NCBI GenBank assembly: GCA_003221005.1
Contig: QHTZ01000098.1
Location: 1 to 27,146, forward strand
Direction: 5' to 3'
Length of the DNA: 27,146 nucleotides
DNA from: Gemmatimonadota bacterium
GTDB taxonomy: Bacteria; Gemmatimonadota; Gemmatimonadetes; Gemmatimonadales; GWC2-71-9
Part shown: piece by piece, positions 6,181-27,146 of the stretch
Numbering within the stretch: position 1 is the stretch's first letter
How the letters are laid out: every line of letters begins with the position of its first letter
Made by a program: the position numbers and the translations under genes
The notes under the pieces: generated by a model
What the model was told of the DNA's origin: nothing
Databases searched by the model: none
What the model saw: only the letters and a program-made list of their open reading frames with translations

Positions 6181-7767
6181 TTACGGCAGCTTGTGCAGCT
6201 CCACGCGCCGGTTCTGCGCCCGGCCGGCGATCGTGGTATTCGGCGCAATCGGGGTGCGTGAGCCGTACCCGCGCGCGAGCATGCGCGTGGGGCTCACACC
6301 GTTGCGGGCGAGGTACGCCCGCACCGCGGCGGCCCGTGCCTGCGACAGCCGGATGTTCACGCCGACCGGGCCCGTGTTGTCGGTATAGCCAGCGATCTCG
6401 ATCTTGATCTCGGGATTCGCGAGCAATGAGGCCGCGACCTGATCGAGCACCGCGTACGAGTCGGCTGTCAGCACCGACCGTCCGGTTTGGAAGTTCACCC
6501 CGCGCAGGACGAGGGTGGGCCGCCGCGGGGGGGCCCCGGGCCGGGGTGGCGCCGCAGCCGATTCGGGACGGAACAGAATCATGCACCCGGTCGCGTCAAC
6601 CGGCACGCCCGGTGGCGTGTTGGGGCACTTGTCGAGCGTGTCCGGGACGCCATCTCCGTCCGCATCCTGAGCGACCGGGCATCCCACCGCGTCCACGGGC
6701 GTGCCCGCTGGCGTGTTGGGACACTTGTCGATCCCGTCGAGCACGCCGTCATGGTCCGTATCAGTTGGGCAGCCGGTAGCATCGACCGTCGCCCCGGCGG
6801 GAGTGTCCGGACACTTGTCGATGCCGTCGAGGACGCCGTCATGGTCCGAATCGCTCGGGCAGCCCGTGGCATCCACGGTCGCGCCAGCGGGTGTGTCCGG
6901 ACACTTGTCGATGCCGTCCGGCACACCGTCGTGGTCCGCGTCCATGGCGCAGCCGGTCGCGTCAACCGGGGTGCCCACCGGCGTGTCGGGGCACTGGTCG
7001 ATCCCGTCGGGGACACCGTCCTGGTCGGTGTCGAGCGGGCACCCTCGTACGTCCACCTTCGCACCGAGCGGCGTGTTGGGGCAGGCGTCGTCCTGGTCCG
7101 GCACGCCGTCCTGATCCGCGTCCTGCGCGGTGGGCGGCGGCGTGGGAAGCGCCGGCGTGGGTGGCGCAGCCGCGACTGGTGGCGGAGTCGCCGCCGGTGG
7201 GGGTGCCGGAGGAGCCGGTGTGCGCTTGCTGCCCGGCGCGAAGATCGCGAGCCCGGCCGAGCCCACGAGATGGGTGACCGAGTTTGCCGTAAGGGACGAC
7301 TTGGTGTCGGGGGTGTAGATGGCTCTGGCTTCGAGCCGCAGGGCGAGGTGGCGAGTCAAAAAGATGCGGTCGCCCACGCCACCGTGGATGCCGCCGTCCG
7401 TGAACTTGTACGGGGCCGTCGCGCCGAAATCGAGCAGTGAATACCCGCCCAGCACGTAGAGGCTGTTCCCCGCGCCGTGGAGCAGGTTGACCACCAGGCT
7501 CACGCCGCCGATCAGCGGCTCGATCGTCGAGTTTGACGTGCCGAGGGTGTATTCGGGCTGGAACAGCACATCGGCTTCCAGTCCGACGCGGTCGCCGAAC
7601 GCGTATCCCAGGCGCACTCCGCCGCCGATCTTCTTGGCGAGGTTGAAGGAGGCGTCGTACTTGGTGTATGAGCCGAACATGCTGAACTCGTACTCGCGGG
7701 CGTGTTGCGCCTCGAGGCCCGCGGCCCCGGTCAGCAGAGCCAGCCCAACCGTCGTGAGTGCGCGCAT
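6181..7767 (-). CDS. OmpA-family outer membrane protein: beta-barrel, Pro-rich linker, six TSP3-like Ca-binding repeats, peptidoglycan-binding domain
   Basis: Signal peptide ending LEA-Q. Six repeats of DxDxDGVxDxxDxCPxTP. C-terminal GYTDNTG, NIRLSQARAAAV and GRAQNRRVEL. AGGAGG Shine-Dalgarno upstream. Confidence 0.95.
   Translation of the reverse strand: MRALTTVGLALLTGAAGLEAQHAREYEFSMFGSYTKYDASFNLAKKIGGGVRLGYAFGDRVGLEADVLFQPEYTLGTSNSTIEPLIGGVSLVVNLLHGAGNSLYVLGGYSLLDFGATAPYKFTDGGIHGGVGDRIFLTRHLALRLEARAIYTPDTKSSLTANSVTHLVGSAGLAIFAPGSKRTPAPPAPPPAATPPPVAAAPPTPALPTPPPTAQDADQDGVPDQDDACPNTPLGAKVDVRGCPLDTDQDGVPDGIDQCPDTPVGTPVDATGCAMDADHDGVPDGIDKCPDTPAGATVDATGCPSDSDHDGVLDGIDKCPDTPAGATVDATGCPTDTDHDGVLDGIDKCPNTPAGTPVDAVGCPVAQDADGDGVPDTLDKCPNTPPGVPVDATGCMILFRPESAAAPPRPGAPPRRPTLVLRGVNFQTGRSVLTADSYAVLDQVAASLLANPEIKIEIAGYTDNTGPVGVNIRLSQARAAAVRAYLARNGVSPTRMLARGYGSRTPIAPNTTIAGRAQNRRVELHKLP
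6583..7122 (-). repeat. Six tandem ~90-bp coding repeats (thrombospondin type-3-like)
   Basis: Units of 30, 30, 30, 30, 32 and 28 aa. Units 3-5 are nearly identical (DxDHDGVxDGIDKCPxTPAG). Confidence 0.9.
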
Positions 7768-14572: not shown

Positions 14573-15778
14573 GTGCCAGAGACCTACTTCCGCCGGGGCT
14601 TCGGACTCAAGGGCGCGATCGAGGGTGCGCTCGCCGCTGACTACCACAGCCGCATCGTGGATGTGATCCGCGGCCGCGGCTACACCCTCGTCGTGGGCGA
14701 CCTGACCTTCAGGCTGGCGCACGAGTTCGGGTTCTGCTACGGCGTGGACCGCGCCGTCGAGTACGCGTACGAGACGCGGACCAAGTTCCCGGATCGCCGC
14801 CTGTTCCTGGTGGGCGAGATCATCCACAATCCCCACGTAAACGCCAAGCTCCACGACATGGGCGTCGAGTGCCTGCATCGCCCTGAAGGCGGAGCCTTCG
14901 ACTTCGCGGCCGTGACGCCCGACGACGTCGTGATTCTCCCGGCGTTCGGCGTCACCGTCGGGGACTTCGAGCGCCTGCGCGAGATCGGGTGCGTATTGGT
15001 GGATACGACTTGCGGCTCGGTCCTCAATGTGTGGAAGCGGGTCGAGTCCTATGCCCGAGATGGCTTCACCGCGCTGATCCATGGCAAGAGCTACCACGAG
15101 GAGACCAAGGCCACGGCGAGCCAGGTGACCAAATACGCGGGCGGGAAATACCTCGTGGTCCGGGACATGGCCGAAGCGCGCGTGGTCTGCGCGTACATCG
15201 AAGGCACCGGGGAGCGCGAGGACTTGCTCGCCCGGTTTGCAGGGAAAGTCTCGCCCGGGTTCGACGCCGAGCGGGACCTCGTGCGCGTCGGCGTCGCGAA
15301 CCAGACCACGATGCTTTCGAACGAGTCGCTCGCAATCGCCGCTCTCGTGCGCGACAGCATGACGCGACGCTACGGCGCAGGCGAGCTCGCGGACCACTTC
15401 CGCAACTTCGACACCATCTGCTCGGCGACGCAGGACCGTCAAGACGCGGTGCTCAAGCTGATCGCCGAGCCGCTCGACCTGATGGTGGTGATCGGCGGAT
15501 ACAACTCGAGCAACACGACGCATCTCGCGGCGATCTGCCACGGGCGCGTCCCCACGTATCACATCGAGGACGCCACCGGCATCGATCCCGCGACGGGAGC
15601 GATCCGGTTCCGCCCGGTGGGCGCGCAGGGCGCGACGCGGGGCGAAGCCTGGCTGCCCGAGGGCCCGGTCAAGATTGGCATCACAGCCGGGGCGTCGACG
15701 CCGAACAACAAGATCGGGGAGACGATCGAGCGCATCGCCGCGACGCGCGGCGTCTCGCTGGCGGCCAGCCTCGCGTAG
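14573..15778 (+). CDS. ispH: 4-hydroxy-3-methylbut-2-enyl diphosphate reductase
   Basis: Motifs [54 protein letters not shown] and GITAGASTP. Confidence 0.97.
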
Positions 15779-15818
15779 CGTCCGAGCGTCTTCGGGAAAG
15801 TTTCGCCATATTTCAGCT

Positions 15819-18800
15819 GTGCCCCTGTCAGGGTTTCATCCGGTCGTCACGGGGTGGTTCGAGTCGCGGTTCCGCGAGCCGACCGAGCCGCAGCGCCGGG
15901 CGTGGCCCGTCATCCAATCGGGCGATGACGCGCTAATCGCGGCGCCCACGGGCTCAGGGAAGACGTTCGCCGCTTTCCTCGCCGCGATCGATGCCCTGCT
16001 GCGCCAGGGGCTGGACGGCGCCCTGCGCGACGAGATCCAAGTGCTCTACGTCTCGCCGCTCAAAGCCCTCTCGAACGACGTCCAGAAGAACCTCTCCGAG
16101 CCGCTCGCGGAGATCCGTGCCGCGCTTGCGGGGTTGGGTCTTCCCGAGGTGGACATCCGCACCCTCGTCCGCACCGGCGACACGCCGGCGTCCGAGCGCC
16201 AGGCGATGGTGAAGCGCCCGCCCCACATCCTGGTCACCACGCCCGAGTCGCTGTTCCTGATCCTTACGTCCGAGCGCGCGCGCGACATGCTGCGGACCGT
16301 GCGCACGGTAATCGTGGACGAGATCCACGCCGTGGCGCGGGACAAACGCGGCAGTCACCTTGCGCTGTCCCTCGAGCGGCTCGACCATCTCGCGGGCCGG
16401 CGGCTGCAGCGCATCGGCCTGTCCGCTACCCAGAAGCCAATCGAGGACATCGCTGCTTTCCTGATCGGGAACAAGCCACGCGCCGTGCCCGGCGCCCAGC
16501 CGTGCGCGATCCTCGACTCGGGCCACGCTCGGCAGCTCGATCTCGGGATCGAGATCCCGTCCTCGCCGCTCGAGGCGGTGATGGCGGCCGAGGTATGGGA
16601 CGAACTGTACGAACGGCTCGCGCGGCTCATCGCGGAGCATCGCACCACGCTGGTATTCGTCAACACCCGGCGGCTCGCCGAGCGCGTGACGCTGCACCTG
16701 TCCGAGCGCCTGGGCGCGGAGCAGGTGACGTCCCATCACGGCAGCCTCTCGAAGGAGAAGCGGCTCGATGCGGAGACCCGGCTCAAGGATGGGAAGCTGC
16801 GGGCGCTCGTCGCCACGGCGTCGCTCGAGCTGGGGATCGACATCGGGACGGTGGACCTGGTATGCCAGATCGGCTCGACGCGCTCGATCGCGACGTTGTT
16901 GCAGCGGGTGGGCCGCTCCGGCCACCATCTGGCCGCCGTCCCGAAGGGGCGGTTGTTCCCGCTCTCCCGCGACGAGCTGATCGAGTGTGCCGCCCTGGTG
17001 CGGGCGGTGCGCGAGCGGAAGCTCGATCGCCTCATCATCCCCGAGCATCCGCTCGACATTCTGGCGCAGCAGGTGGTCGCGGCGGTCGCGTGCGAGGACT
17101 GGGACGAGGACGCGCTGTACCAGCTGGTACTAGGGGCGTACCCCTACCGCGCGTTGGCGCGCAAGGACTTCGACGCCGTGGTGCAGATGCTCGCCGAAGG
17201 ATTTACGACCCGCCGCGGGCGGCGCGGCGCCTACGTGCACTACGATGGGGTGAACCGGCGGCTGCGCGGCCGCCGCGGGGCGCGGCTCGCGGCGATCACA
17301 TCGGGCGGCGCGATCCCCGACATCGGCGACTACCGCGTGGTGCTCGAGCCCACCGAGACGTTCGTCGGCACGCTCAACGAGGACTTCGCAATCGAGAGCA
17401 TGCCGGGGGACATCTTCCAGCTCGGCAACAGCTCTTACCTGATCCGCAAGATCGAGTCCGGGCAGGTGCGGGTGACGGACGCGCAGGGACAGCCGCCGTC
17501 GATCCCCTTCTGGCTGGGCGAAGCGCCGGCGCGGACGCCGGAGCTGTCGGAAGAGGTGTCGCGGCTGCGGGGTGAGATCGCGGCGCGACTGGAGGATCCC
17601 GCCGGCGCGATCGGCTGGCTCGTGGCCGCAGTCGGTCTCGAGGAGCCTGCCGCGCGCCAGGTGGTCGAGTATCTGGCCGCTGCGCAACAGATCCTGGGGG
17701 TGATTCCCACCCAGGAGACGCTCGTCCTCGAGCGCTTCTTCGACGAGGCGGGCGGGATGCAGCTCGTGCTGCACGCGCCGTTCGGGAGCCGGGTGAACCG
17801 CGCCTGGGGGCTCGCGTTGCGCAAGCGGTTCTGCCGCAGCTTCAACTTCGAGCTCCAGGCCGCCGCCACCGAGGACGCCATCGTCCTCTCGCTCGGCCCA
17901 CAGCACAGCTTCCCCCTGGAGCATGTGTTCCAGTACCTGAAGCCCGCCACCGCCGAGCAGCTGCTGGTACAGGCGATGCTCGATGCGCCGATGTTCGGGA
18001 CGCGGTGGCGCTGGAACGCGACCCGCGCGCTCGCGGTGCTGCGGGCCCGCGCGGGCAAAAAGGTCCCAACCCCGCTGCAGCGGATGGAGGCGGAGGACCT
18101 GGTCGCGGCCGTCTTCCCCGACCAGCTCGCGTGCCCGGAGAATCTCGTGGGGGACCGCGAGATCCCCGACCATCCCCTCGTGCAGCAGACGATCGCGGAC
18201 TGCCTGCTCGAAGCGATGGACTTCCCGAGCCTGCGGCGGATCCTCGAGCAGCTGGAGGCGGGCCAGTTCCGCCTCGTGGCGCGTGACACGCCGGAGCCGT
18301 CGCCGCTCGCGCACGAGGTGCTGAACGCGAAGCCCTATGCCTTCCTCGACGATGCGCCCCTCGAGGAGCGGCGCACCCAGGCCGTGATCACGCGCCGCGG
18401 GCTCGACGTGAAGACGGCGGAGGAGTTCGGTAAGCTCGATCAGGCGGCGATCGATCGGGTGAAAGACGAGGCCTGGCCGGACGTCAGCTCCCCCGACGAG
18501 CTGCACGATGCGCTGTTGATTGTCGGAGCCGTGACTGATGAGGAAGGGGGAACGGGGAAGGGGGACGCGTCATGGCGGGCGCATTTCGATGAGCTGGTGA
18601 AGGCCGGGCGCGCGGGAACGTTGCTGCGCGAGCCGCGCCTCTGGATCGCGGCCGAGCGCGTGCCGCTGTTCGAAGCGGTGTTCCCCGGTGTAGGGTGTGA
18701 ACCCCCACTCACGCCACCTGAGCGCGACCGCGCGAGGGCGTGGACGCGCGAAGAAGCCGTGCGCGAGCTGGTGCGCGGCCGCCTGGAAGCGGTCGGACCG

Positions 18801-20168
18801 ACGACGGTTCAAGAGCTCGCCCGCTCGCTCGGAGTGGACGCTCCCGACGTGGAGTTCGCGCTCGGGGCCCTCGAGCATGAGGGGTTCGTGCTGCGTGGTC
18901 GCTTCACGCCGGGGCAGAGCGAGCTCGAGTGGTGCGAGCGACGCCTGCTGGCTCGCATCCATCGCTACACCCTCGACCGGCTGCGGCAGGAGATCGAGCC
19001 CGTCACCGCCCGTGACTTTATGCGCTTCCTCTTCCGGTGGCAGCGGATCGCGGAGGATACGCGCGGGGAGGGGCCGGAGGGACTGGCCGCAGTGCTCGAG
19101 CTGCTCGACGGCTTCGAAGCCCCCGCGGGCGCGTGGGAGGGGGACGTCCTCCCGGCGCGCCTAGCGGACTACGATCCTCTGTGGCTCGACGGCCTCTGCC
19201 TGTCTGGGGAGATCGCGTGGGGGCGGCTCTCGCCACCGGGCACGGCGAATGGGCACCGCTCCGGTCCCGTCCGCACGACCCCCGTGGCGCTGTTCCGCAG
19301 AGAGCGCGGAGAGGTTTGGCGGTCGCTCACGGCCGAGCCCGATGTGGCGGCGGGTACGCTGTCGCACTCCGGCCGCGCGGTGCTCGACGTGCTCGAGCAG
19401 CGGGGGGCATCGTTCTTTGGCGACCTGGTGAACGCGACGGGGCTGCTGCGCACGGAGGTGGAGAAGGGTCTCGGGGAGCTCGTCGCCTGGGGGCTCGTGA
19501 CGTCGGACAGCTTCGCAGGGTTGCGTGCGCTGCTGGTCCCGTCGGACCGGCGGCGGCCGATCGGGGCGGGCGGCTTCCGTCGCCGCGGCCGGGTCGCGCC
19601 ATTCGGGGTCGAGACAGCAGGTCGCTGGTCGCGGGTACGGCGGGGCTCACCGCTCGGCGCGGAGCAGGTCGCCGAGGCGGTCGCCTGGCAGCTGCTGCGG
19701 CGCTACGGCGGCGTGTTCCGCCGCCTCGTCGCACGCGAGACGCTACTGCCGCCGTGGCGCGACATCCTCCGGGTGTACCGCCGCCTCGAGGCGCGCGGCG
19801 AGGTCCGGGGCGGGCGGTTCGTGGGCGGATTCTCAGGGGAGCAGTATGCGCTCCCCGAGGCAGTGGGCTCGCTGCGCGCGGTACGGCGGGTCGAGCCGCA
19901 GGGCGAGCTCACCGCGGTGAGCGGAGCCGACCCGCTGAACCTCGCTGGGATCGTCACGCCGGGCGACACCGTGGCCGCGCTCGCGACCAACCGGATTCTG
20001 TTTCGTGACGGCATCCCGGTCGCGATCAAGGAAGGGGAGGCCCGAGGCGAGCGGCTCCTCGTGGATGCTACGCCTGAAGAGGCCCAGGCACTGCGGACCA
20101 CGCTGGTACGGCGGCGCCCGGCGCCGCTCGTGCGCGCCTACCTGGGCAAGACACCTGCGGGCCGGTAG
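15819..20168 (+). CDS. lhr: Lhr family large ATP-dependent DNA helicase with C-terminal winged-helix/AlkZ-like region
   Basis: Motifs [65 protein letters not shown] and IPFWLGE, plus C-terminal [20 protein letters not shown] 15819 is chosen because the track start at 15675 overlaps ispH. Confidence 0.93.
18540..18567 (+). repeat. Four degenerate 7-mers read in frame inside lhr
   Basis: GAGGAAG GGGGAAC GGGGAAG GGGGACG, encoding the linker EEGGTGKGD. Confidence 0.5.
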
Positions 20169-21749: not shown

Positions 21750-22705
21750 TGCGCCGCCAGGTAGCGGAGCACCGTGGCGTTGAAGTACCCGGGGCTGGTT
21801 GCGTGAATGGCGTGCCCCGCGTCGGGTACGGTGACCACGGTGTCGCTAATCAGGCAGCGCGCCAGCTCTGCGGTAATCACGTGATACATGCGCGGGCTCC
21901 GCTCGCCCTGGAGCAGCAGCACCGGCATCGCCAGCCGGCTGAGCCCGGCGCAGTCGAGGGCAGGCAGGTACTGCTGACGGTCGGCCAGCAGCTCGCGCCG
22001 CAGCTCGAACGAGTGTGCCAGGATGCGGGCGCGGACCGGCGCGGGGAGGTTGTTGAAGCGGCCTGGCGTGCCGCTCAAGCCGTCTACGAACAGGCGGACA
22101 CCCGTGACCGAGTCCCGCCGCTCGAACGCCGCGCGGGCCGGGTCCAGGGAGCCGGCGAGCAGGGCGCGACGGAGCGTGTCACCCCCCGGCGATCGTAGCA
22201 GAAACGGGATGATCGGCGGCTCGCCCAGCACGAGCGTCCGCACCAGGTCGGGATGCTCGAGCGCCAGGGCGAGCGCGACGTAGGCCCCGTAGCCCCCACC
22301 CACGACATGCGCGGGAGCGAGGCCCAGCGCGACGAGTAGCGCGGCGAGGTCCTCTGCGTGGAGCTCGGGGGAGTACACCTGCCCGTCATCCTGCGGAGGG
22401 TTGGGCGGGTGGTAGCGGCGGCTGTACACGAGCACCCGGTGCGTCGCGCCGAACGCCCCGAGCTGGGCGCCCCAGTCGTCGAGATCCCCGTAACTGTCGT
22501 GCACTAGGACCACGGGGGTGCCGGCCGATCCGATCGTCCGGAAGGACAGCAGCGTGTGATTCACCTGCATGGAGAGCAGGCGACTGGCGACGACGGGAGC
22601 GCGAGCGGCCCCGGCAGGCGGGGGCGGTGGGGCACCCGACCGATGGCAGGCGGCGAGGCAGGAAAGGATGGCCAGCCTCAGGACAGGCACGCGAGCGGGC
22701 GGCAT
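21746..22705 (-). CDS. Alpha/beta-hydrolase-fold lipoprotein lacking the nucleophilic serine
   Basis: Lipobox LAA-C. Fold motifs PVVLVH, YSRRYH, HAEDLAAL, VGGGYGA, PVLLLQGE and AGH. Confidence 0.85.
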   Translation of the reverse strand: MPPARVPVLRLAILSCLAACHRSGAPPPPPAGAARAPVVASRLLSMQVNHTLLSFRTIGSAGTPVVLVHDSYGDLDDWGAQLGAFGATHRVLVYSRRYHPPNPPQDDGQVYSPELHAEDLAALLVALGLAPAHVVGGGYGAYVALALALEHPDLVRTLVLGEPPIIPFLLRSPGGDTLRRALLAGSLDPARAAFERRDSVTGVRLFVDGLSGTPGRFNNLPAPVRARILAHSFELRRELLADRQQYLPALDCAGLSRLAMPVLLLQGERSPRMYHVITAELARCLISDTVVTVPDAGHAIHATSPGYFNATVLRYLAAH

Positions 22706-22723: not shown

Positions 22724-22987
22724 CTACCCCCAGTCCTTCGAGTCGGGCGCGACGCGGCGCATCGTTTTTAGAAACGAATAGGGCCGGGATGCGGGATGGG
22801 AGATGGGGGATGAGTGGTCATCGGTCGCATCCCGCACCTCGCTTCCCGCATCCCGCATCCCGTGAAGTCTCAGCCCCCTCGCCTCCTCCGCGATCACGTT
22901 CACGGTTCCGTCGTCCTTCGTGAGCTTCCCGCTCACCCACAGGAACGGCTCCCCCCGGATCGCCACGCGGTGACGCTCGTAGACATC
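22724..22987 (-). pseudogene. dnaE2: Out-of-frame true C-terminus of dnaE2 (second half of the OB fold and terminal motif)
   Basis: Reads DVYERHRVAIRGEPFLWVSGKLTKDDGTVNVIAEE...RRVAPDSKDWG in a different frame from the main ORF. Confidence 0.8.
22785..22862. repeat. Inverted 7-mer tandem-repeat element (CGGGATG x4 / CATCCCG x5), 78 bp
   Basis: CGGGATG CGGGATG GGAGATG GGGGATG, a 15-nt spacer, then CATCCCG CACCTCG CTTCCCG CATCCCG CATCCCG. Confidence 0.85.
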
Positions 22988-25952
22988 CGAGGCCGGTGAC
23001 GGCGATGCGCGCCCCGTGCTCGAGCCCCGGGAGGCCGTCGCTCCGGGTCACGCCGGGGGGCAAGGCGTCATGTAGCAGCGCGAGCGGGTGGCCGCTCGCG
23101 GCGAAGCCCAGGACCTCGTACTCGGCGAGCATCCGCTCATCGGCCTCCATGCCGCCGAAGCGCAACCCCTCGTGCGGGTTGTTGAGCGGCAGCTCGATCT
23201 GGCGCCGCCCGCGCGCGTCAGCGCCGCGCTCGGCTTTGGGCGGCAGCCACAGCCCCACCTGCCACAACAGCTCACGCCGGGTGAGCCCGAAGTCGTCGCA
23301 CCCGCCCACCCACACGAGGTTCTCGATCCCGGTGCGCTTGAGCTTTGGAGGCGCGCGGCGCACGAAGTCGCCGAGGCTCCGGAAGGCCCCGCGCCGCTCG
23401 CGCTCGAGAACGACAGCCGTCGCGGTTTCCTCGCTCCAATCGCGAATGAATCCGAGCCCCACCCGCACCGCTTCCCGTTCGACCGTGCACCAGACGTCGC
23501 TCGCGTTCACGTCGGGGAGGCCGATCTCGATGCCGTTGCGCTTGGCGTCCCGTCCGAGGGCGTCGAGCGAGTAGAACCCCATCGGCTGGTTGTTGAAGAG
23601 GCCCGTGTAATACTCCGCGGGGTGATAGTGGCGCAGCCACGCCGACTGATACGCGAGCAGCCCGAACGCCGCCGCGTGCGACTTGGGGAAGCCGAACTCG
23701 GAGAAGGCGATCACCTGGGAGAAGACGCGCTCGGCAGTTGCCTCGGAGACCCCACGCGCGGCGGCGCCATCCTTGAAATCCACCCAAAAACTCGCCATCA
23801 GCTCGCGGCTGCGTCGCCGGCTCATGGCGCGCCGCAGCGCTTCGGCCTGTCCGGGCGTGAACCCGGCGAGCGCCTGGCACACCTGGAGCACTTGGTCCTG
23901 GTACAGGATGACGCCGAGCGTTTCCGTGAGGACATCCTTCAGGAGCGGGTGATCCACCGGGGGCTCGTAACTGCGGCCCGCCGCGGCGGCACGGCGCTGC
24001 TCCTCCCGGCGCCGCACGTAGGGGTTCACGGCGCCGCCCACGATCGGGCCGGGGCGCACGATTGCGACCTCGACCGCGAGATCCTCGAGGCTGCGCGGCC
24101 GGGTGCGACGGAGCATCTGGATCTGCGCGCGGCTCTCGATCTGGAACAGCCCCACGGTGTCGCCGCGGCAGATGCGGTCGTAGACCGCGGGATCGTCGAA
24201 ATCGATGCGCGAGAGATCAGGCGGCCGCCCCTGCCGCGCGGCCACGAGCTCCACGCACTCCTCCACCAGCGACAGCATTCCGAGCGCCAGGAAGTCGATC
24301 TTGATGAAGCGGGCGTCGTCGCAGGAATCCTTGTCCCACTGACACACGACCCGGTCCTCCATGGCGGCGCGCTCGAGCGGGACGAGCTCGACGAGCGGCC
24401 GGCTCGAGATCACCATCCCGCCGACGTGCTGCGAGACGTGGCGCGGCAGCCCAGCGATTTCTTCAGCGAGCTCGCACAGCTCCTTCCAGAGCGGGGCATT
24501 CTTGCGTCCCTCGAATCCGGGCAGCTGGTCGAGCTCATCCGCCAATCCGCCTGACCGCCGATCCGCCAATTTCGCGACCTGCTCGATCTGGCCCGCCGGC
24601 AGATCCAGCGCTTTGCCGATCTCTCGGACCGCGGAGCGGAGGCGGTAGGTGGGGAAGGAGCAGACGAGGCCGACGTGCTCGGCGCCGTAACGCTGGTACA
24701 CGCGCCGGATCAGCTCCTCGCGGATCTCCCGCGGGAAGTCGAGGTCGATGTCCGGCACCGACGCGAGCGTCTCGTTCAAGAACCGCCCGAAGAATAGGTG
24801 TGTGGCGGCGGGATCGACGTGTGAGAGGCCCAGCAGATAGCAGACGACTGAGGAGACCGACGAGCCGCGCCCGCGTCCGGGCAGCAGCCCGGCGGCAGCG
24901 CGGCGGGATCCACGGCGCACGTCGGCTGCTACCTCGCGCGCCAGGTCGAACAGGTCGTGGTAGACGAGAAAGAAGCCGGCGAGCCCGTGGTGCTCGATCA
25001 ACCGCAGCTCTTCGGCGAGCCGCCGTTCGGCTTCGGCGCGGTGCGTCGAGCCCTCGGGATAGCGCTCCTCGAGTCGCGCCCGACACAGCTCGGCGAGCGC
25101 GCGGGGCGCGCCCTGCTCGCCCGAGCCACGGAAATCCGGGAAGCGGTAGCCCAGGTCCCGCGTGAGATCGAAGGCGGCGCAGCGTTCGGCGAGCAGCAGA
25201 GTATTGGCGACAGCATCAGGACAGTCACAGAACATCATGGCGACATCCTGCGGTCGCCGTAGCGCGAATTCGCTGTTGGGGCGGCGCACTGAGTGCGAGC
25301 CGTCGAGCGTGGTGCGATGCCGGATCGCGACGAGCACGTCGTGCAGGCGGTGCCGCTCGCGGTGGTGATAATGCACGTTGCCTGACGCCACGACGCCAAG
25401 TTGCACGACACTCGCGATGTCGATCAGTGCCCGGGTCAGGGAGAGATCGCCCCGGACGAGGTTTCGTTGTAGCTCGACGTAGAAGCGCTCCGGCCCGAAG
25501 CAGGCGCGGCACCGCTCGGCGAGCCGCCGGGCAGCAAGCGGACCGTCGCGCTGCAGCGCGCGTGGCAACAAGCCGCTCCGGCAGCCGGAGAGGACGATGA
25601 GCCCGTCGCGCCGCGCCACGAGCGACGCGAAGTCGAGCCGGGGATCACGGCGGTCGGGCCCGCCGAGGTGCGCTTCGGTGAGCAGCCGGCAGAGGTTCGC
25701 GTAGCCGCGCGGCGTCTCGGCGAGCAGCGTGACGTGCGAGCCGTCGAGCAGCGTCACCTCGGCGCCGGTGATCGCCTGGAGACCGAGCTGCTTCGCTTCC
25801 TGGGCGAACGCCATCGAGCCGTAGAGGCCGTTGTGGTCGGTGAGCGCCAGCGCAGAGTAGCCGAGGTTCACGGCGGTGAGCGCGAGCTGCTCGGGAAGCG
25901 AAGCGCCGTCGAGAAATGAATAGGCCGAGTGGCAATGAAGTTCGACGTACAT
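22818..25952 (-). CDS. dnaE2: Error-prone DNA polymerase DnaE2 (ImuC), frameshifted near the 3' end; the intact gene would end at 22724
   Basis: PHP domain YVELHCHSAYSFLDGAS and TDH; GRGRGSS; catalytic PDIDLDF and KIDFLAL; PRHVSQHVGG, QWDKD, FPKSHA and NNQPMGFY. Family similarity stops after AVTGL at about 22990. Confidence 0.93.
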   Translation of the reverse strand: MYVELHCHSAYSFLDGASLPEQLALTAVNLGYSALALTDHNGLYGSMAFAQEAKQLGLQAITGAEVTLLDGSHVTLLAETPRGYANLCRLLTEAHLGGPDRRDPRLDFASLVARRDGLIVLSGCRSGLLPRALQRDGPLAARRLAERCRACFGPERFYVELQRNLVRGDLSLTRALIDIASVVQLGVVASGNVHYHHRERHRLHDVLVAIRHRTTLDGSHSVRRPNSEFALRRPQDVAMMFCDCPDAVANTLLLAERCAAFDLTRDLGYRFPDFRGSGEQGAPRALAELCRARLEERYPEGSTHRAEAERRLAEELRLIEHHGLAGFFLVYHDLFDLAREVAADVRRGSRRAAAGLLPGRGRGSSVSSVVCYLLGLSHVDPAATHLFFGRFLNETLASVPDIDLDFPREIREELIRRVYQRYGAEHVGLVCSFPTYRLRSAVREIGKALDLPAGQIEQVAKLADRRSGGLADELDQLPGFEGRKNAPLWKELCELAEEIAGLPRHVSQHVGGMVISSRPLVELVPLERAAMEDRVVCQWDKDSCDDARFIKIDFLALGMLSLVEECVELVAARQGRPPDLSRIDFDDPAVYDRICRGDTVGLFQIESRAQIQMLRRTRPRSLEDLAVEVAIVRPGPIVGGAVNPYVRRREEQRRAAAAGRSYEPPVDHPLLKDVLTETLGVILYQDQVLQVCQALAGFTPGQAEALRRAMSRRRSRELMASFWVDFKDGAAARGVSEATAERVFSQVIAFSEFGFPKSHAAAFGLLAYQSAWLRHYHPAEYYTGLFNNQPMGFYSLDALGRDAKRNGIEIGLPDVNASDVWCTVEREAVRVGLGFIRDWSEETATAVVLERERRGAFRSLGDFVRRAPPKLKRTGIENLVWVGGCDDFGLTRRELLWQVGLWLPPKAERGADARGRRQIELPLNNPHEGLRFGGMEADERMLAEYEVLGFAASGHPLALLHDALPPGVTRSDGLPGLEHGARIAVTGLGCLRASPRGDPGGAVPVGEREAHEGRRNRERDRGGGEGAETSRDAGCGKRGAGCDR

Positions 25953-25980
25953 AGGAAAAATGTGCGTGGTGCGTAGTTGC

Positions 25981-26274
25981 TTACGGTTTCTGCTCGAACC
26001 ACTCTCCCATCATCAAGTCTTCGAACACCACAGCCCGCTTCCCGCCATCGAGCACGACTTCGTAACAGCGACGTGAGATCGGCTGCCGCCACCACTCGTC
26101 GTCAATTCGCCAGACTTCGAGGACGGTCTCGACCGCTGCCTCTGACTCTTGACCGCCTGATCGCCTGACCGCCGCAGGTCGACCCTCCGCATCGAGTTCA
26201 ACCTGCACCGATTCCGGAACGTTCAGGGCTCGAAGTCGATCAGTGCGTAGCGACGCTCGGGAATGCGCGACCAT
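25981..26274 (-). CDS. Small conserved mutagenesis-cassette protein (DUF6504-like), 97 aa
   Basis: ATG 26274 gives MVAHSRASLRTDRLRALNVPESVQV...VETVLEVWRIDDEWWRQPISRRCYEVVL...FEDLMMGEWFEQKP. The WRIDDEWW pattern and the position between imuB and dnaE2 fit this family. It is the 3' part of track ORF 25981..27015. Confidence 0.85.
   Translation of the reverse strand: MVAHSRASLRTDRLRALNVPESVQVELDAEGRPAAVRRSGGQESEAAVETVLEVWRIDDEWWRQPISRRCYEVVLDGGKRAVVFEDLMMGEWFEQKP
26142..26172. repeat. Degenerate 8-mer tandem repeat (CTGACCGC) read in frame in the small cassette gene
   Basis: CTGACTC TTGACCGC CTGATCGC CTGACCGC, encoding AVRRSGGQES on the minus strand. Confidence 0.6.
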
Positions 26275-27146
26275 GGCTGAACCTCGATGACGTGATACAG
26301 CATCGCGCGTCGCAGCCGGAGCGCGATCTCCCGGACGGCGCGCTCGAGCGCCCGCCGGCGACCGGCTCGCGCGGCGGCGCTCGCGTCGCGGGCGAAGAGC
26401 TGCAGCTCGGCTGTCCCTGGAGCGAAACCGGTGAACTCGACGGCGAGCCGCTCGACGGCTTTGGCGGGCGGCGCTTGCTCGAGACGTGTCTTGAGCGGCG
26501 CGGCGATGCGGCTGCGCTCGGCGGTCGGATCCTTGAGCACCGCTTCGATCATCCAGGAAGCGCCGTGCTCGAGCTCGGCCCGCACGCGCACCTGCTGCAC
26601 GCGCCAACCCGTGCGACGCGGGTGTTTGAGCGCGCGCTCGATCAGCTGCTCCAGGGAGTGCGCCAGCATCTCCCGGTCGGCGACGGGAGAGAAAAAGGTG
26701 AGTCCCGCGACGATCGGCTCGGGCGCCTCGCGACCCACGACCGGCTCCACGAGCACTCCCGCCGCGAGCCGCCATAGCCGCCGGCCGGCGCGGCCGAACT
26801 GCGAGACGACTGCCTCTTCCGGCAGCGCCGCGAGATCGCCCAGCGTGCGCAGCCCGAGCTGCCGCAGGCGCCGGTGCGTGTCGGGATCGAGTGGCAACAC
26901 GGCGAGCGGTTGGCGCGCGAGAAACATCCCTTCCTCCCCGGGCGGTACGATCACCGCGCCCCCCGGTTTGGCGCGACTGGCGGCGACCCAGGCGACGAAC
27001 CTCCCCTTCCCCCACCCCACCCGGAACGTGGAACGTGGAAGTCGGAACGCGGAACAGGCGAAAGAATTTTCCGTCTCAGTTCCGCGTTCCGCGTTCCACG
27101 TTCCGCATTTTATTGCTTCGACGATCTGATCCGGCGAACCGTATAG
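26223..27146 (-). CDS. imuB: ImuB-like Y-family polymerase homologue, 5' end outside the window
   Basis: The frame is open from the right edge (LYGSPDQIVEAIK...RVGWGKGRFVAWVAA). It contains the Y-family HhH region PLAVLP...LRQLGLRTLGDLAALP...QFG and a C-terminal PWSRIPERRY, and lies upstream of dnaE2. Confidence 0.85.
   Translation of the reverse strand, partial: LYGSPDQIVEAIKCGTWNAERGTETENSFACSAFRLPRSTFRVGWGKGRFVAWVAASRAKPGGAVIVPPGEEGMFLARQPLAVLPLDPDTHRRLRQLGLRTLGDLAALPEEAVVSQFGRAGRRLWRLAAGVLVEPVVGREAPEPIVAGLTFFSPVADREMLAHSLEQLIERALKHPRRTGWRVQQVRVRAELEHGASWMIEAVLKDPTAERSRIAAPLKTRLEQAPPAKAVERLAVEFTGFAPGTAELQLFARDASAAARAGRRRALERAVREIALRLRRAMLYHVIEVQPWSRIPERRYALIDFEP
27022..27106. repeat. Inverted 7-mer tandem-repeat element (YGGAACG x5 / GTTCCRC x4) inside imuB
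   Basis: CGGAACG TGGAACG TGGAAGT CGGAACG CGGAAC, a 23-nt partly self-complementary spacer, then GTTCCGC GTTCCGC GTTCCAC GTTCCGC. Confidence 0.9.

Follow-up and report, generated by a model that had tools for sequence, protein, structure and literature searches.

Short-period inverted repeat arrays of the imu cassette (imuB, a small open reading frame (ORF) and dnaE2) were analysed in a window of 27,146 nt, which is the entire contig C6 of a Gemmatimonadales metagenome-assembled genome (MAG; label G000; 2.79 Mb, 141 contigs, 69% G+C, 93.9% completeness; placed in the Gemmatimonadales from its named relatives). With moderate confidence, the arrays are interpreted as gene-less hairpin elements of the intervening-sequence (IVS) type that are kept at permissive linkers by concerted evolution. 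The pattern at the imu locus gives direct evidence that a dispersed repeat has evolved in concert with its structure preserved, and it amounts to a natural experiment, in which one insertion is followed across a bacterial order: both arms switched unit several times, pairing was kept and the units stayed in step with the genome. New from this locus are hot spots that extend across the order, a loop that stays conserved where the arms are rewritten, and the concordance of units within a genome; across the genome, such hairpins are tolerated and translated within essential replication genes as well as in the error-prone ImuB/DnaE2 pair.

Arrays were located in the window with Tandem Repeats Finder and an inverted-repeat scan. 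An earlier note on this DNA had listed a short-period repeat of a different unit in each of the three cassette genes and had described the coding copies as keeping the frame open; all listed arrays were recovered, and the imuB and dnaE2 arrays are both read through. The 3' part of imuB (26223-27146, reverse strand) comprises 307 codons and the stop codon at 26223-26225; its product is a catalytically dead Y-family polymerase paralogue (aligned with 15 orthologues) with a match to IMS_C (E 3.5e-5), and matches DNA polymerase IV models from about residue 42, under the model cut-offs. The imuB hairpin (27023-27106, reverse strand, sense unit GGAACGY) has a left arm at 27023-27055 (GGAACGT, 4.7 copies), a loop at 27056-27078 and a right arm at 27079-27106 (GTTCCGC, 4.0 copies). 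In the inverted-repeat scan the arms were 31 nt long and 87% complementary with a 23-nt loop, and the hairpin folded as coding-strand RNA at -55.7 kcal/mol (z -9.4). The imuB frame stays open across it, and about 28 residues are encoded between LYGSPDQIVEAI and RVGWGKG.

The dnaE2 gene (22724-25952, reverse strand, start at 25952), an error-prone Pol III alpha paralogue with the domains PHP, DNA_pol3_alpha, finger and HHH_6, carries its hairpin at 22785-22862 (reverse strand, unit CGGGATG), in the C-terminal tether that runs from the end of the OB-fold (NVIAEEARGL) to the conserved C-terminal motif. Its arms lie at 22785-22812 and 22828-22862 and its loop at 22813-22827; Tandem Repeats Finder reported CGGGATG at 22785-22812 (4.0 copies) and the opposed CGCATCC at 22826-22862 (5.3 copies). 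The scan gave 28-nt arms with 86% complementarity and a 15-nt loop, and folding of the coding-strand RNA gave -49.1 kcal/mol (z -6.1). Downstream of the array, in the same frame, lies the conserved DnaE2 peptide FLKTMRRVAPDSKDWG (22727-22774, reverse strand), which is terminal in all 13 orthologues shown and ends in the same way in each (...FLKxMRRVAPDSKDWG); the frame that bears it reads through the whole array to the true stop at 22724-22726. The third array, at 26150-26173 on the reverse strand, is one-armed (TGACCGCC, period 8, 3.0 copies, of the GGCGGTCA type on the sense strand). It lies in the central, variable part of the small conserved ORF found between imuB and dnaE2 (25981-26241, reverse strand), is read in frame and does not fold as RNA (z 0.0).

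Array hot spots and rewritten arms in the Gemmatimonadales

Orthologous sites were surveyed in 80 named Gemmatimonadales loci from related genomes; a period score of at least 12, a threshold set by us, was counted as an array. At the imuB loop site, between LYGxP..I and R[LV]GWG, 46 of 74 assessable loci had an array (27 of period 8, 19 of period 7). The small-ORF segment, taken from the imuB stop to the WRIDDEWW motif, had one in 20 of 62 loci (11 of period 8, 9 of period 7) and the dnaE2 tether in 17 of 63 (14 of period 7, 2 of period 8, 1 of period 10), compared with 99 of 2999 random 120-nt windows from the same loci (3.3%). The three imu sites are order-wide array hot spots.

For a smaller comparison, 16 relatives were taken from a genome search. 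Hairpins with other units were found at their imuB sites (GCGGATT in G033, TGCGTGG in G002, GCGGART in G016, mixed in G015), together with double arrays (G014), direct arrays (G007), remnants (G003, G005, G006, G009 and G020) and array-free alleles (G004, G019, G031 and G036); the dnaE2 tether of the 16 relatives gave the same pattern. G020 is an unpublished genome and was used only for its imuB-site remnant and for the 'no array' row L050 at the dnaE2 site. The small-ORF site likewise differs among relatives, with GGCGGTCR in four copies (G009), its complement (G002) or GGGACGG (G026). The polymorphism that the earlier note had expected at orthologous sites is thus present, as array-bearing, one-armed, remnant and empty alleles.

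Pairing between the arms was scored at the imuB site, and the two arms of one locus reached a mean of 20.3, compared with 7.7 for arms combined from different orthologues. An alignment of 13 heptamer-hairpin orthologues, chosen for having the feature and including two near-duplicate pairs of rows, was then used for covariation. The boundaries of the element coincide, and 89.3% of the 364 cells formed by 28 in-register pairs are paired; when the partner was slid by 1-3 columns, pairing dropped to 30-52%. Cells changed on both sides numbered 30, against 11.2 in shuffles, and none of 500 shuffles reached 30. Variation falls on positions six and seven of every unit, throughout the four units of both arms. 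Even where the arms differ, the loop is homologous (GGAAAGTTCGCTCGCC with GCGGAAC arms in L085, TGAAAGCTCGCTCGTC with GCGGAGT arms in L076). Shared boundaries and a homologous loop between different arms point to a single old insertion, both arms of which changed together, and not to repeated insertions. The arrays had been described as colonising the cassette; they are not recent arrivals but old, vertically inherited residents. In L084 and L074 the loop and right arm have been lost, which shows how one-armed arrays originate.

Units were compared between loci and with the repertoire of each genome. Of 61 genomes searched for the pattern of three CGGRWYG units in tandem, 17 had matches, and the dominant unit was genome-specific: CGGATTG in G033 (38 hits) and G009 (33 hits), CGGGATG and CGGAACG in G025, CGGGACG in G030. 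The imu arrays of G033 and G009 are built from the dominant unit of their own genome. The imuB and dnaE2 units of one genome differed by at most one mismatch in 9 of 12 genomes, compared with 49 of 132 cross-genome pairs. The reversed control pattern had no hits in 59 of the 61 genomes, 2 in G051 and 21 in G024; the last genome has an expanded heptamer family of mirrored sequence.

The repeat class across the genome and its PF05635 genes

Strict arrays were counted in G000 by period, a single poly-C run being counted at every period, and numbered 31 (6 nt), 74 (7 nt), 36 (8 nt), 17 (9 nt) and 13 (10 nt). Five third-order Markov genomes of the same size as G000, which served as chance control, had no array of period 7 or 8 and never more than 2 of any one period, so the arrays exceed chance. 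Period-7 families have the units GGGACGG, CGGGATG, GGAATGC, GGGAAAC, GGAACGC, CAGACGT, GGGAAGG, TGCGTGG and CATTGGA; longer units are GACGGAAG, GTCGGACG and GACCGCCY (period 8) and GGCGGTAAGG (period 10). The 26150-26173 array belongs to the GACCGCCY family, with other GACCGCC arrays on C52, C60, C62, C105, C106, C130 and C136. Removal of one GC-only pair from 48 inverted heptamer pairs left 47 clean hairpins, with about four units per arm and loops of 1-253 nt. Arms are 28-32 nt long and hold about four units whatever the period, and the purine-rich arm is 5' in 46 of the 47 hairpins (by symmetry this is true on both strands). The arrays have a geometry in common and not a sequence, as the earlier note had suggested.

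Hairpins lying deep in genes made up 15 of the 45 that could be assessed, compared with 1508 of 2946 random positions, and about two thirds of the G000 hairpins are extragenic. Contrary to the wording of the earlier note, the arrays in G000 are not specific to the imu cassette; their other hosts are mostly housekeeping genes, namely those for DnaX, two E2 acyltransferases, LigD, asparaginase II, DnaG, KsgA, a heparinase-like protein, NadE, FtsK, a protein of no family, MnmE, a SucA-like fusion, an aldehyde dehydrogenase and RsmB. Most in-gene copies fall between domains. In the two E2 acyltransferase genes (C52:862-1162 and C44:6107-6225), a pair of inverted GGGACGG arms stands around the E3-binding domain or directly next to it, so that natural inter-domain linkers are encoded by repeat arms. 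Because a heptamer run encodes one and the same cyclic peptide whichever frame is read, a unit can persist in genes only if it is free of stops; hairpins with a stop-containing unit (CAGACGT type) were outside genes in 4 of 4 assessable cases, too few for statistics. Four of the 15 deep in-gene hairpins are in genes of DNA metabolism (DnaX, DnaG, LigD, FtsK), and the window adds ImuB and DnaE2. This is suggestive of an enrichment in such genes, by a classification made post hoc and confounded by the long multi-domain proteins with linkers among them.

All six genes of the 23S-rRNA-IVS protein family PF05635 (IVP) in G000 adjoin short-period repeats. Inverted arms flank five of them with scores of 20.5-24.5 (control maximum 14.5 in 400 placements), and the sixth (C132) scores 11, inside the control range. 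In five relatives, 23 of 26 PF05635 genes had a flanking-arm score of at least 15. Versions of the repeat-flanked cassette that carry a gene, which the earlier note had postulated, thus exist in G000 and its relatives. The cassette on C66 has the arm unit GGAACGC, which is that of the imuB array, and the one on C52 has GGCGGTC/GACCGCC, which is that of the small-ORF array; the dnaE2 unit CGGGATG flanks an IVP gene in G025 (L179), and CGGATTG, the dominant unit of G033, both flanks an IVP gene there (L177) and forms the imuB array. IVP paralogues in G000 are 24-42% identical, except for the C135/C52 pair (65%), whose arms share a GGCGGT core. An IVP cassette with CCAATGT arms (L181, C39 1-832) was observed 8 nt past a 5S rRNA gene, at the end of an rRNA operon (23S 3' end at 1-122, 5S at 182-298, array from 306).

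Further features of the imu region and the window

In the ORF list the dnaE2 ORF ends at 22818, within the hairpin loop. This end and the switch of frame are due to a deletion at 22989/22990 (junction 22989-22990, reverse strand), where 92 nt are missing relative to three orthologues, about 30 OB-fold residues are removed and the frame is shifted. The deletion could be an assembly error, a polymorphism or the mark of a real pseudogene. Logan contigs of two soil runs (X3 and X6) start at 22988, and none of those listed bridges the junction. Logan contigs of four soil runs span the array regions; they are too fragmentary for copy-number variants, and the sole indel listed is one of 3 nt at 22623. 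Among the matches listed, 20 soil-metagenome rows from 15 studies hold the stretch, with no RNA holder among them. A further stretch of dnaE2 (24537-24570, period 8, 73% matches) was rejected as an array; it encodes KLADRRSGGLADELD, which is free of insertions in 25 of 25 aligned orthologues.

The small ORF (...DRLRALNVP...WRIDDEWWRQPISRRCYEVVLDGGKRAVVFEDLMMGEWFEQKP, stop at 25981-25983) is conserved in the 11 orthologues shown, with the consensus ...DRLRALNVP...WRIDDEWWRxPIxRxYYEVVLxxGxxVVLFxDLxxGEWWxQxP, and matched no family in Pfam or NCBIfam. The conserved 5' end of the ORF shares nucleotides with the imuB C-terminus (RYALIDFEP and stop) in another frame in G000 and six relatives, and no canonical start codon was found near this end in these genomes. 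Five other relatives have two copies of this segment of about 25 nt, separated by a one-armed array, and an ATG in or just before the array can be the start. Two TGCGTRG units lie at 25963-25976, between the small-ORF stop and the dnaE2 ATG. This pair, listed in the earlier note, is present, and two copies alone are within chance; relatives have a full TGCGTGG/CCACGCA hairpin in the same spacer (G002) or GTTCCGC remnants (G005, G006), and the pair is probably the leftover of one arm.

The contig ends 40 nt past the imuB hairpin, truncating the 5' part of imuB, and the repeat probably broke the assembly there (27107-27146). With the G033 orthologue as query, neither the N-terminal part of ImuB nor imuA was found in the G000 assembly, which proves nothing about their absence. 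In practice, arrays of this kind break assemblies, inflate or split gene calls and can create false C-termini. Elsewhere in the window, a solo GGAAGGG array of 3.4 copies (18542-18565) was found in an ORF on the forward strand (15675-20168); it is a member of the GGGAAGG family, most copies of which have a single arm. A 90-nt tandem repeat at 6692-7080 (3.4-4.1 copies, 75-80% matches) probably encodes a 30-residue protein repeat.

Competing explanations and known systems

As gene-less elements of the IVS type, the imu copies would belong to a hairpin class whose full-length members have a PF05635 four-helix-bundle (IVP/S23p) gene in their loop. Survival within a gene would depend on a unit that is stop-free on either strand, on a total length divisible by three and on a position, either a surface loop or a tether between domains, where 25-30 additional residues are tolerated; permissive sites of this sort would be the palm loop of imuB, the central part of the small ORF and the C-terminal tether of DnaE2. 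They would already have been occupied when the sampled Gemmatimonadales diverged, the element then being inherited vertically with its boundaries and loop conserved. Slippage and quasipalindrome template switching are known processes and could homogenise sequence within an element. We infer that the arms are homogenised by slippage within an arm and by hairpin-templated (quasipalindrome) correction between arms. Continual homogenisation would explain how geometry and pairing persist while the unit changes with the repertoire of the genome; the concordance of units between loci would need conversion or re-seeding from other genomic copies as well.

Several points weigh against this interpretation. 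Hairpins were assigned to genes by a heuristic of our own (an open frame of at least 180 nt on both sides plus periodicity of G+C at third codon positions), without annotation. No target duplication beyond the control was found (47 hairpins, 20-nt flanks; mean longest shared word 4.0, compared with 4.3 in controls) and no transposase was found for the arrays, which agrees with the earlier note on both counts. Loops of the same family within G000 are unrelated to one another, so that simple copy-and-paste does not fit. Inverted arms were recognised in 22 of the 46 imuB-site arrays and 24 lacked an inverted partner at our threshold; the hairpin is therefore not always kept. The comparison of imuB and dnaE2 units rests on 12 related, non-independent genomes. 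No insertion event was caught at an imu site, and deletion alone can explain presence and absence there (as in L084 and L074). An IVP-bearing copy exists for only about 5 of the approximately 15 unit families of G000, no IVP gene with CGGGATG arms was found in the G000 assembly, and we know of no catalytic activity of a PF05635 protein. A reverse transcriptase (PF00078) was not found in G000, which at 93.9% completeness does not prove its absence; retrohoming like that of diversity-generating retroelements (an Avd-like four-helix bundle plus a reverse transcriptase) is unsupported, as no such enzyme was found.

It is unlikely, though worth weighing, that the arrays are simple-sequence repeats made in place by slippage and fold-back template switching, never mobile and only by coincidence associated with IVP genes. 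The missing target duplications, the unrelated loops of same-family copies, the vertical inheritance of the imu elements with their conserved loop, and the frequency of one-armed arrays with copy number and arm loss varying among relatives are all as such an origin would have it. It does not account for the strict polarity of the hairpins, the arm length fixed at about four units at any period, the discrete, genome-specific unit families common to dozens of loci, or the position of 5 of 6 and 23 of 26 IVP genes between arms of those families; and because, within a genome, the units of two separate loci change in step, local slippage alone is insufficient.

Retention of the hairpins for an action in cis on the RNA or DNA of the imu operon, as RNase III sites, as ribosome pauses that hold down expression or as G-quadruplexes, is judged distinctly unlikely. 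In its favour, arrays are present at the three positions in 27-62% of the orthologues from Gemmatimonadales compared with 3.3% of random windows, the stems are very stable and compensatory change maintains their pairing; like-built IVS stems are cut by RNase III (PMC4990558), and four-unit G-rich heptamers form G-quadruplexes in vitro (PMC4692102), according to the text of each source. However, 28 of 74 orthologues are array-free at imuB (score 12) and 46 of 63 at dnaE2, many others are one-armed, and like elements occur in unrelated housekeeping genes. The units GGAACGY of imuB, GGAATGC, CAGACGT, TGCGTGG and CATTGGA have no GGG tract, so a G-quadruplex cannot be the general explanation. Selection at the protein level, for flexible Gly/Arg-rich and Pro/Ser-rich linkers, would suit the placement of in-gene copies between domains and the E2 acyltransferase arms around the E3-binding domain, where natural linkers are Pro/Ala-rich. 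It is nevertheless very improbable, since the peptide at one site shifts with the unit (CGVRNAECG, GTWNAERG, RIVDCGLRIG, EVQRCRGAE) and it is the nucleotide pairing that is conserved, array-free orthologues exist with linkers of 8-17 residues, and roughly two in three hairpins lie outside genes. An artefact of MAG assembly might be suspected from the contig end next to the imuB array and from the 92-nt deletion in dnaE2; for the arrays themselves it is already refuted by same-site arrays in dozens of independently assembled MAGs from many studies and by the Logan contigs of four soil runs that cover the array regions.

To our knowledge, bacterial heptamer repeats and the S23p/IVP family have gone unexplained for decades. 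A speculative extension, to which we give a low probability, is that each IVP paralogue maintains its own repeat family in trans, in the manner of RAYT proteins and their repeats, and that the 28-bp stems in imuB and dnaE2 are RNase III targets that throttle the mutasome. An IVP protein would then recognise hairpins of its cognate unit and drive the re-templating of fixed-site arms to the current 'master' cassette; the 30-year-old family would gain a function, and a new mode of repeat maintenance would be recognised.

Repetitive extragenic palindromic (REP) sequences and REPINs are dispersed hairpins without target duplication, and a family is tied to one small gene (RAYT, a Y1 transposase) that is flanked by its own repeats. 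The relation of the IVP genes to their arm families resembles that of RAYT genes to REPs; REPs are extragenic, and we know of no nuclease fold in IVP proteins. Mobilisation of the arrays by RAYT was rejected because the two Y1_Tnp genes of G000 have distinct REP-like flanks of their own: unlike the IVP genes, these RAYT-like genes (C27:17690-18400 and C66:6290-6800) are flanked by non-periodic palindromes and not by heptamer arrays. They represent a second, unrelated repeat system. The hairpins also differ from MITEs, the miniature transposable elements with inverted repeats, as they lack target-site duplication. Rickettsia palindromic elements, as summarised in a MITE review from the studies of Ogata et al. 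2000 and 2002 (PMC10969869), are palindromes of about 80-150 bp that lie in frame in unrelated genes at fold-compatible positions. The parallel drawn in the earlier note is borne out by the in-frame insertion of G000 hairpins in protein-coding genes; however, each Rickettsia family keeps its sequence and peptide, whereas here only the geometry is kept, the unit drifts and loops are unrelated between copies.

The closest likeness in build is to the helix-45 IVS of Coxiella burnetii, for which the text of PMC4990558 describes a 28-bp terminal stem with an S23p ORF, made of 3-4 tandem heptamers (GACAGAT) in strain-variable number and cut by RNase III within the stem. The imu arms of 28 and 31 nt likewise form a long stem of tandem heptamers (4.0-5.3 copies per arm), and a PF05635 ORF lies between arms at other G000 loci (5 of 6 genes). 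In contrast to the IVS, the imu hairpins have no ORF in their loops (15 and 23 nt) and lie in protein-coding sequence that is translated in frame, and the elements occur as dozens of dispersed copies that belong to several unit families. No Rfam family was matched in the window, where the arrays are in imuB, the small ORF and dnaE2 and not in 23S rRNA. In full-text searches of the literature apart from subscription journals, no paper was found that connects heptamer arrays with PF05635 genes located outside rRNA, and none that reports such arrays from imuB or dnaE2.

Heptamers of Xanthomonas (GGGAATC) and Nostoc (GGGGAYT) were read as G-quadruplex motifs by Rehm et al. 2015 in PLoS One (PMC4692102). 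That text gives 70-75 convergent inverted pairs per Xanthomonas genome without association with insertion sequences, reports G-rich heptamers as under-represented in, yet not excluded from, coding regions, and contains neither 'S23' nor '23S' in its main part. The G000 arrays share the heptamer unit, the preference for four units and the convergent inverted pairs; they differ in their many unit families, several of them without a GGG tract, and in the additional periods of 8 and 10 nt. The description of the system as undescribed therefore stands in part: as far as the two texts go, four-unit inverted heptamers (PMC4692102) and heptamers in IVS stems (PMC4990558) were already published, whereas the conserved in-frame hot spots, the covariation of arms that change in concert and the link to PF05635 genes are new.

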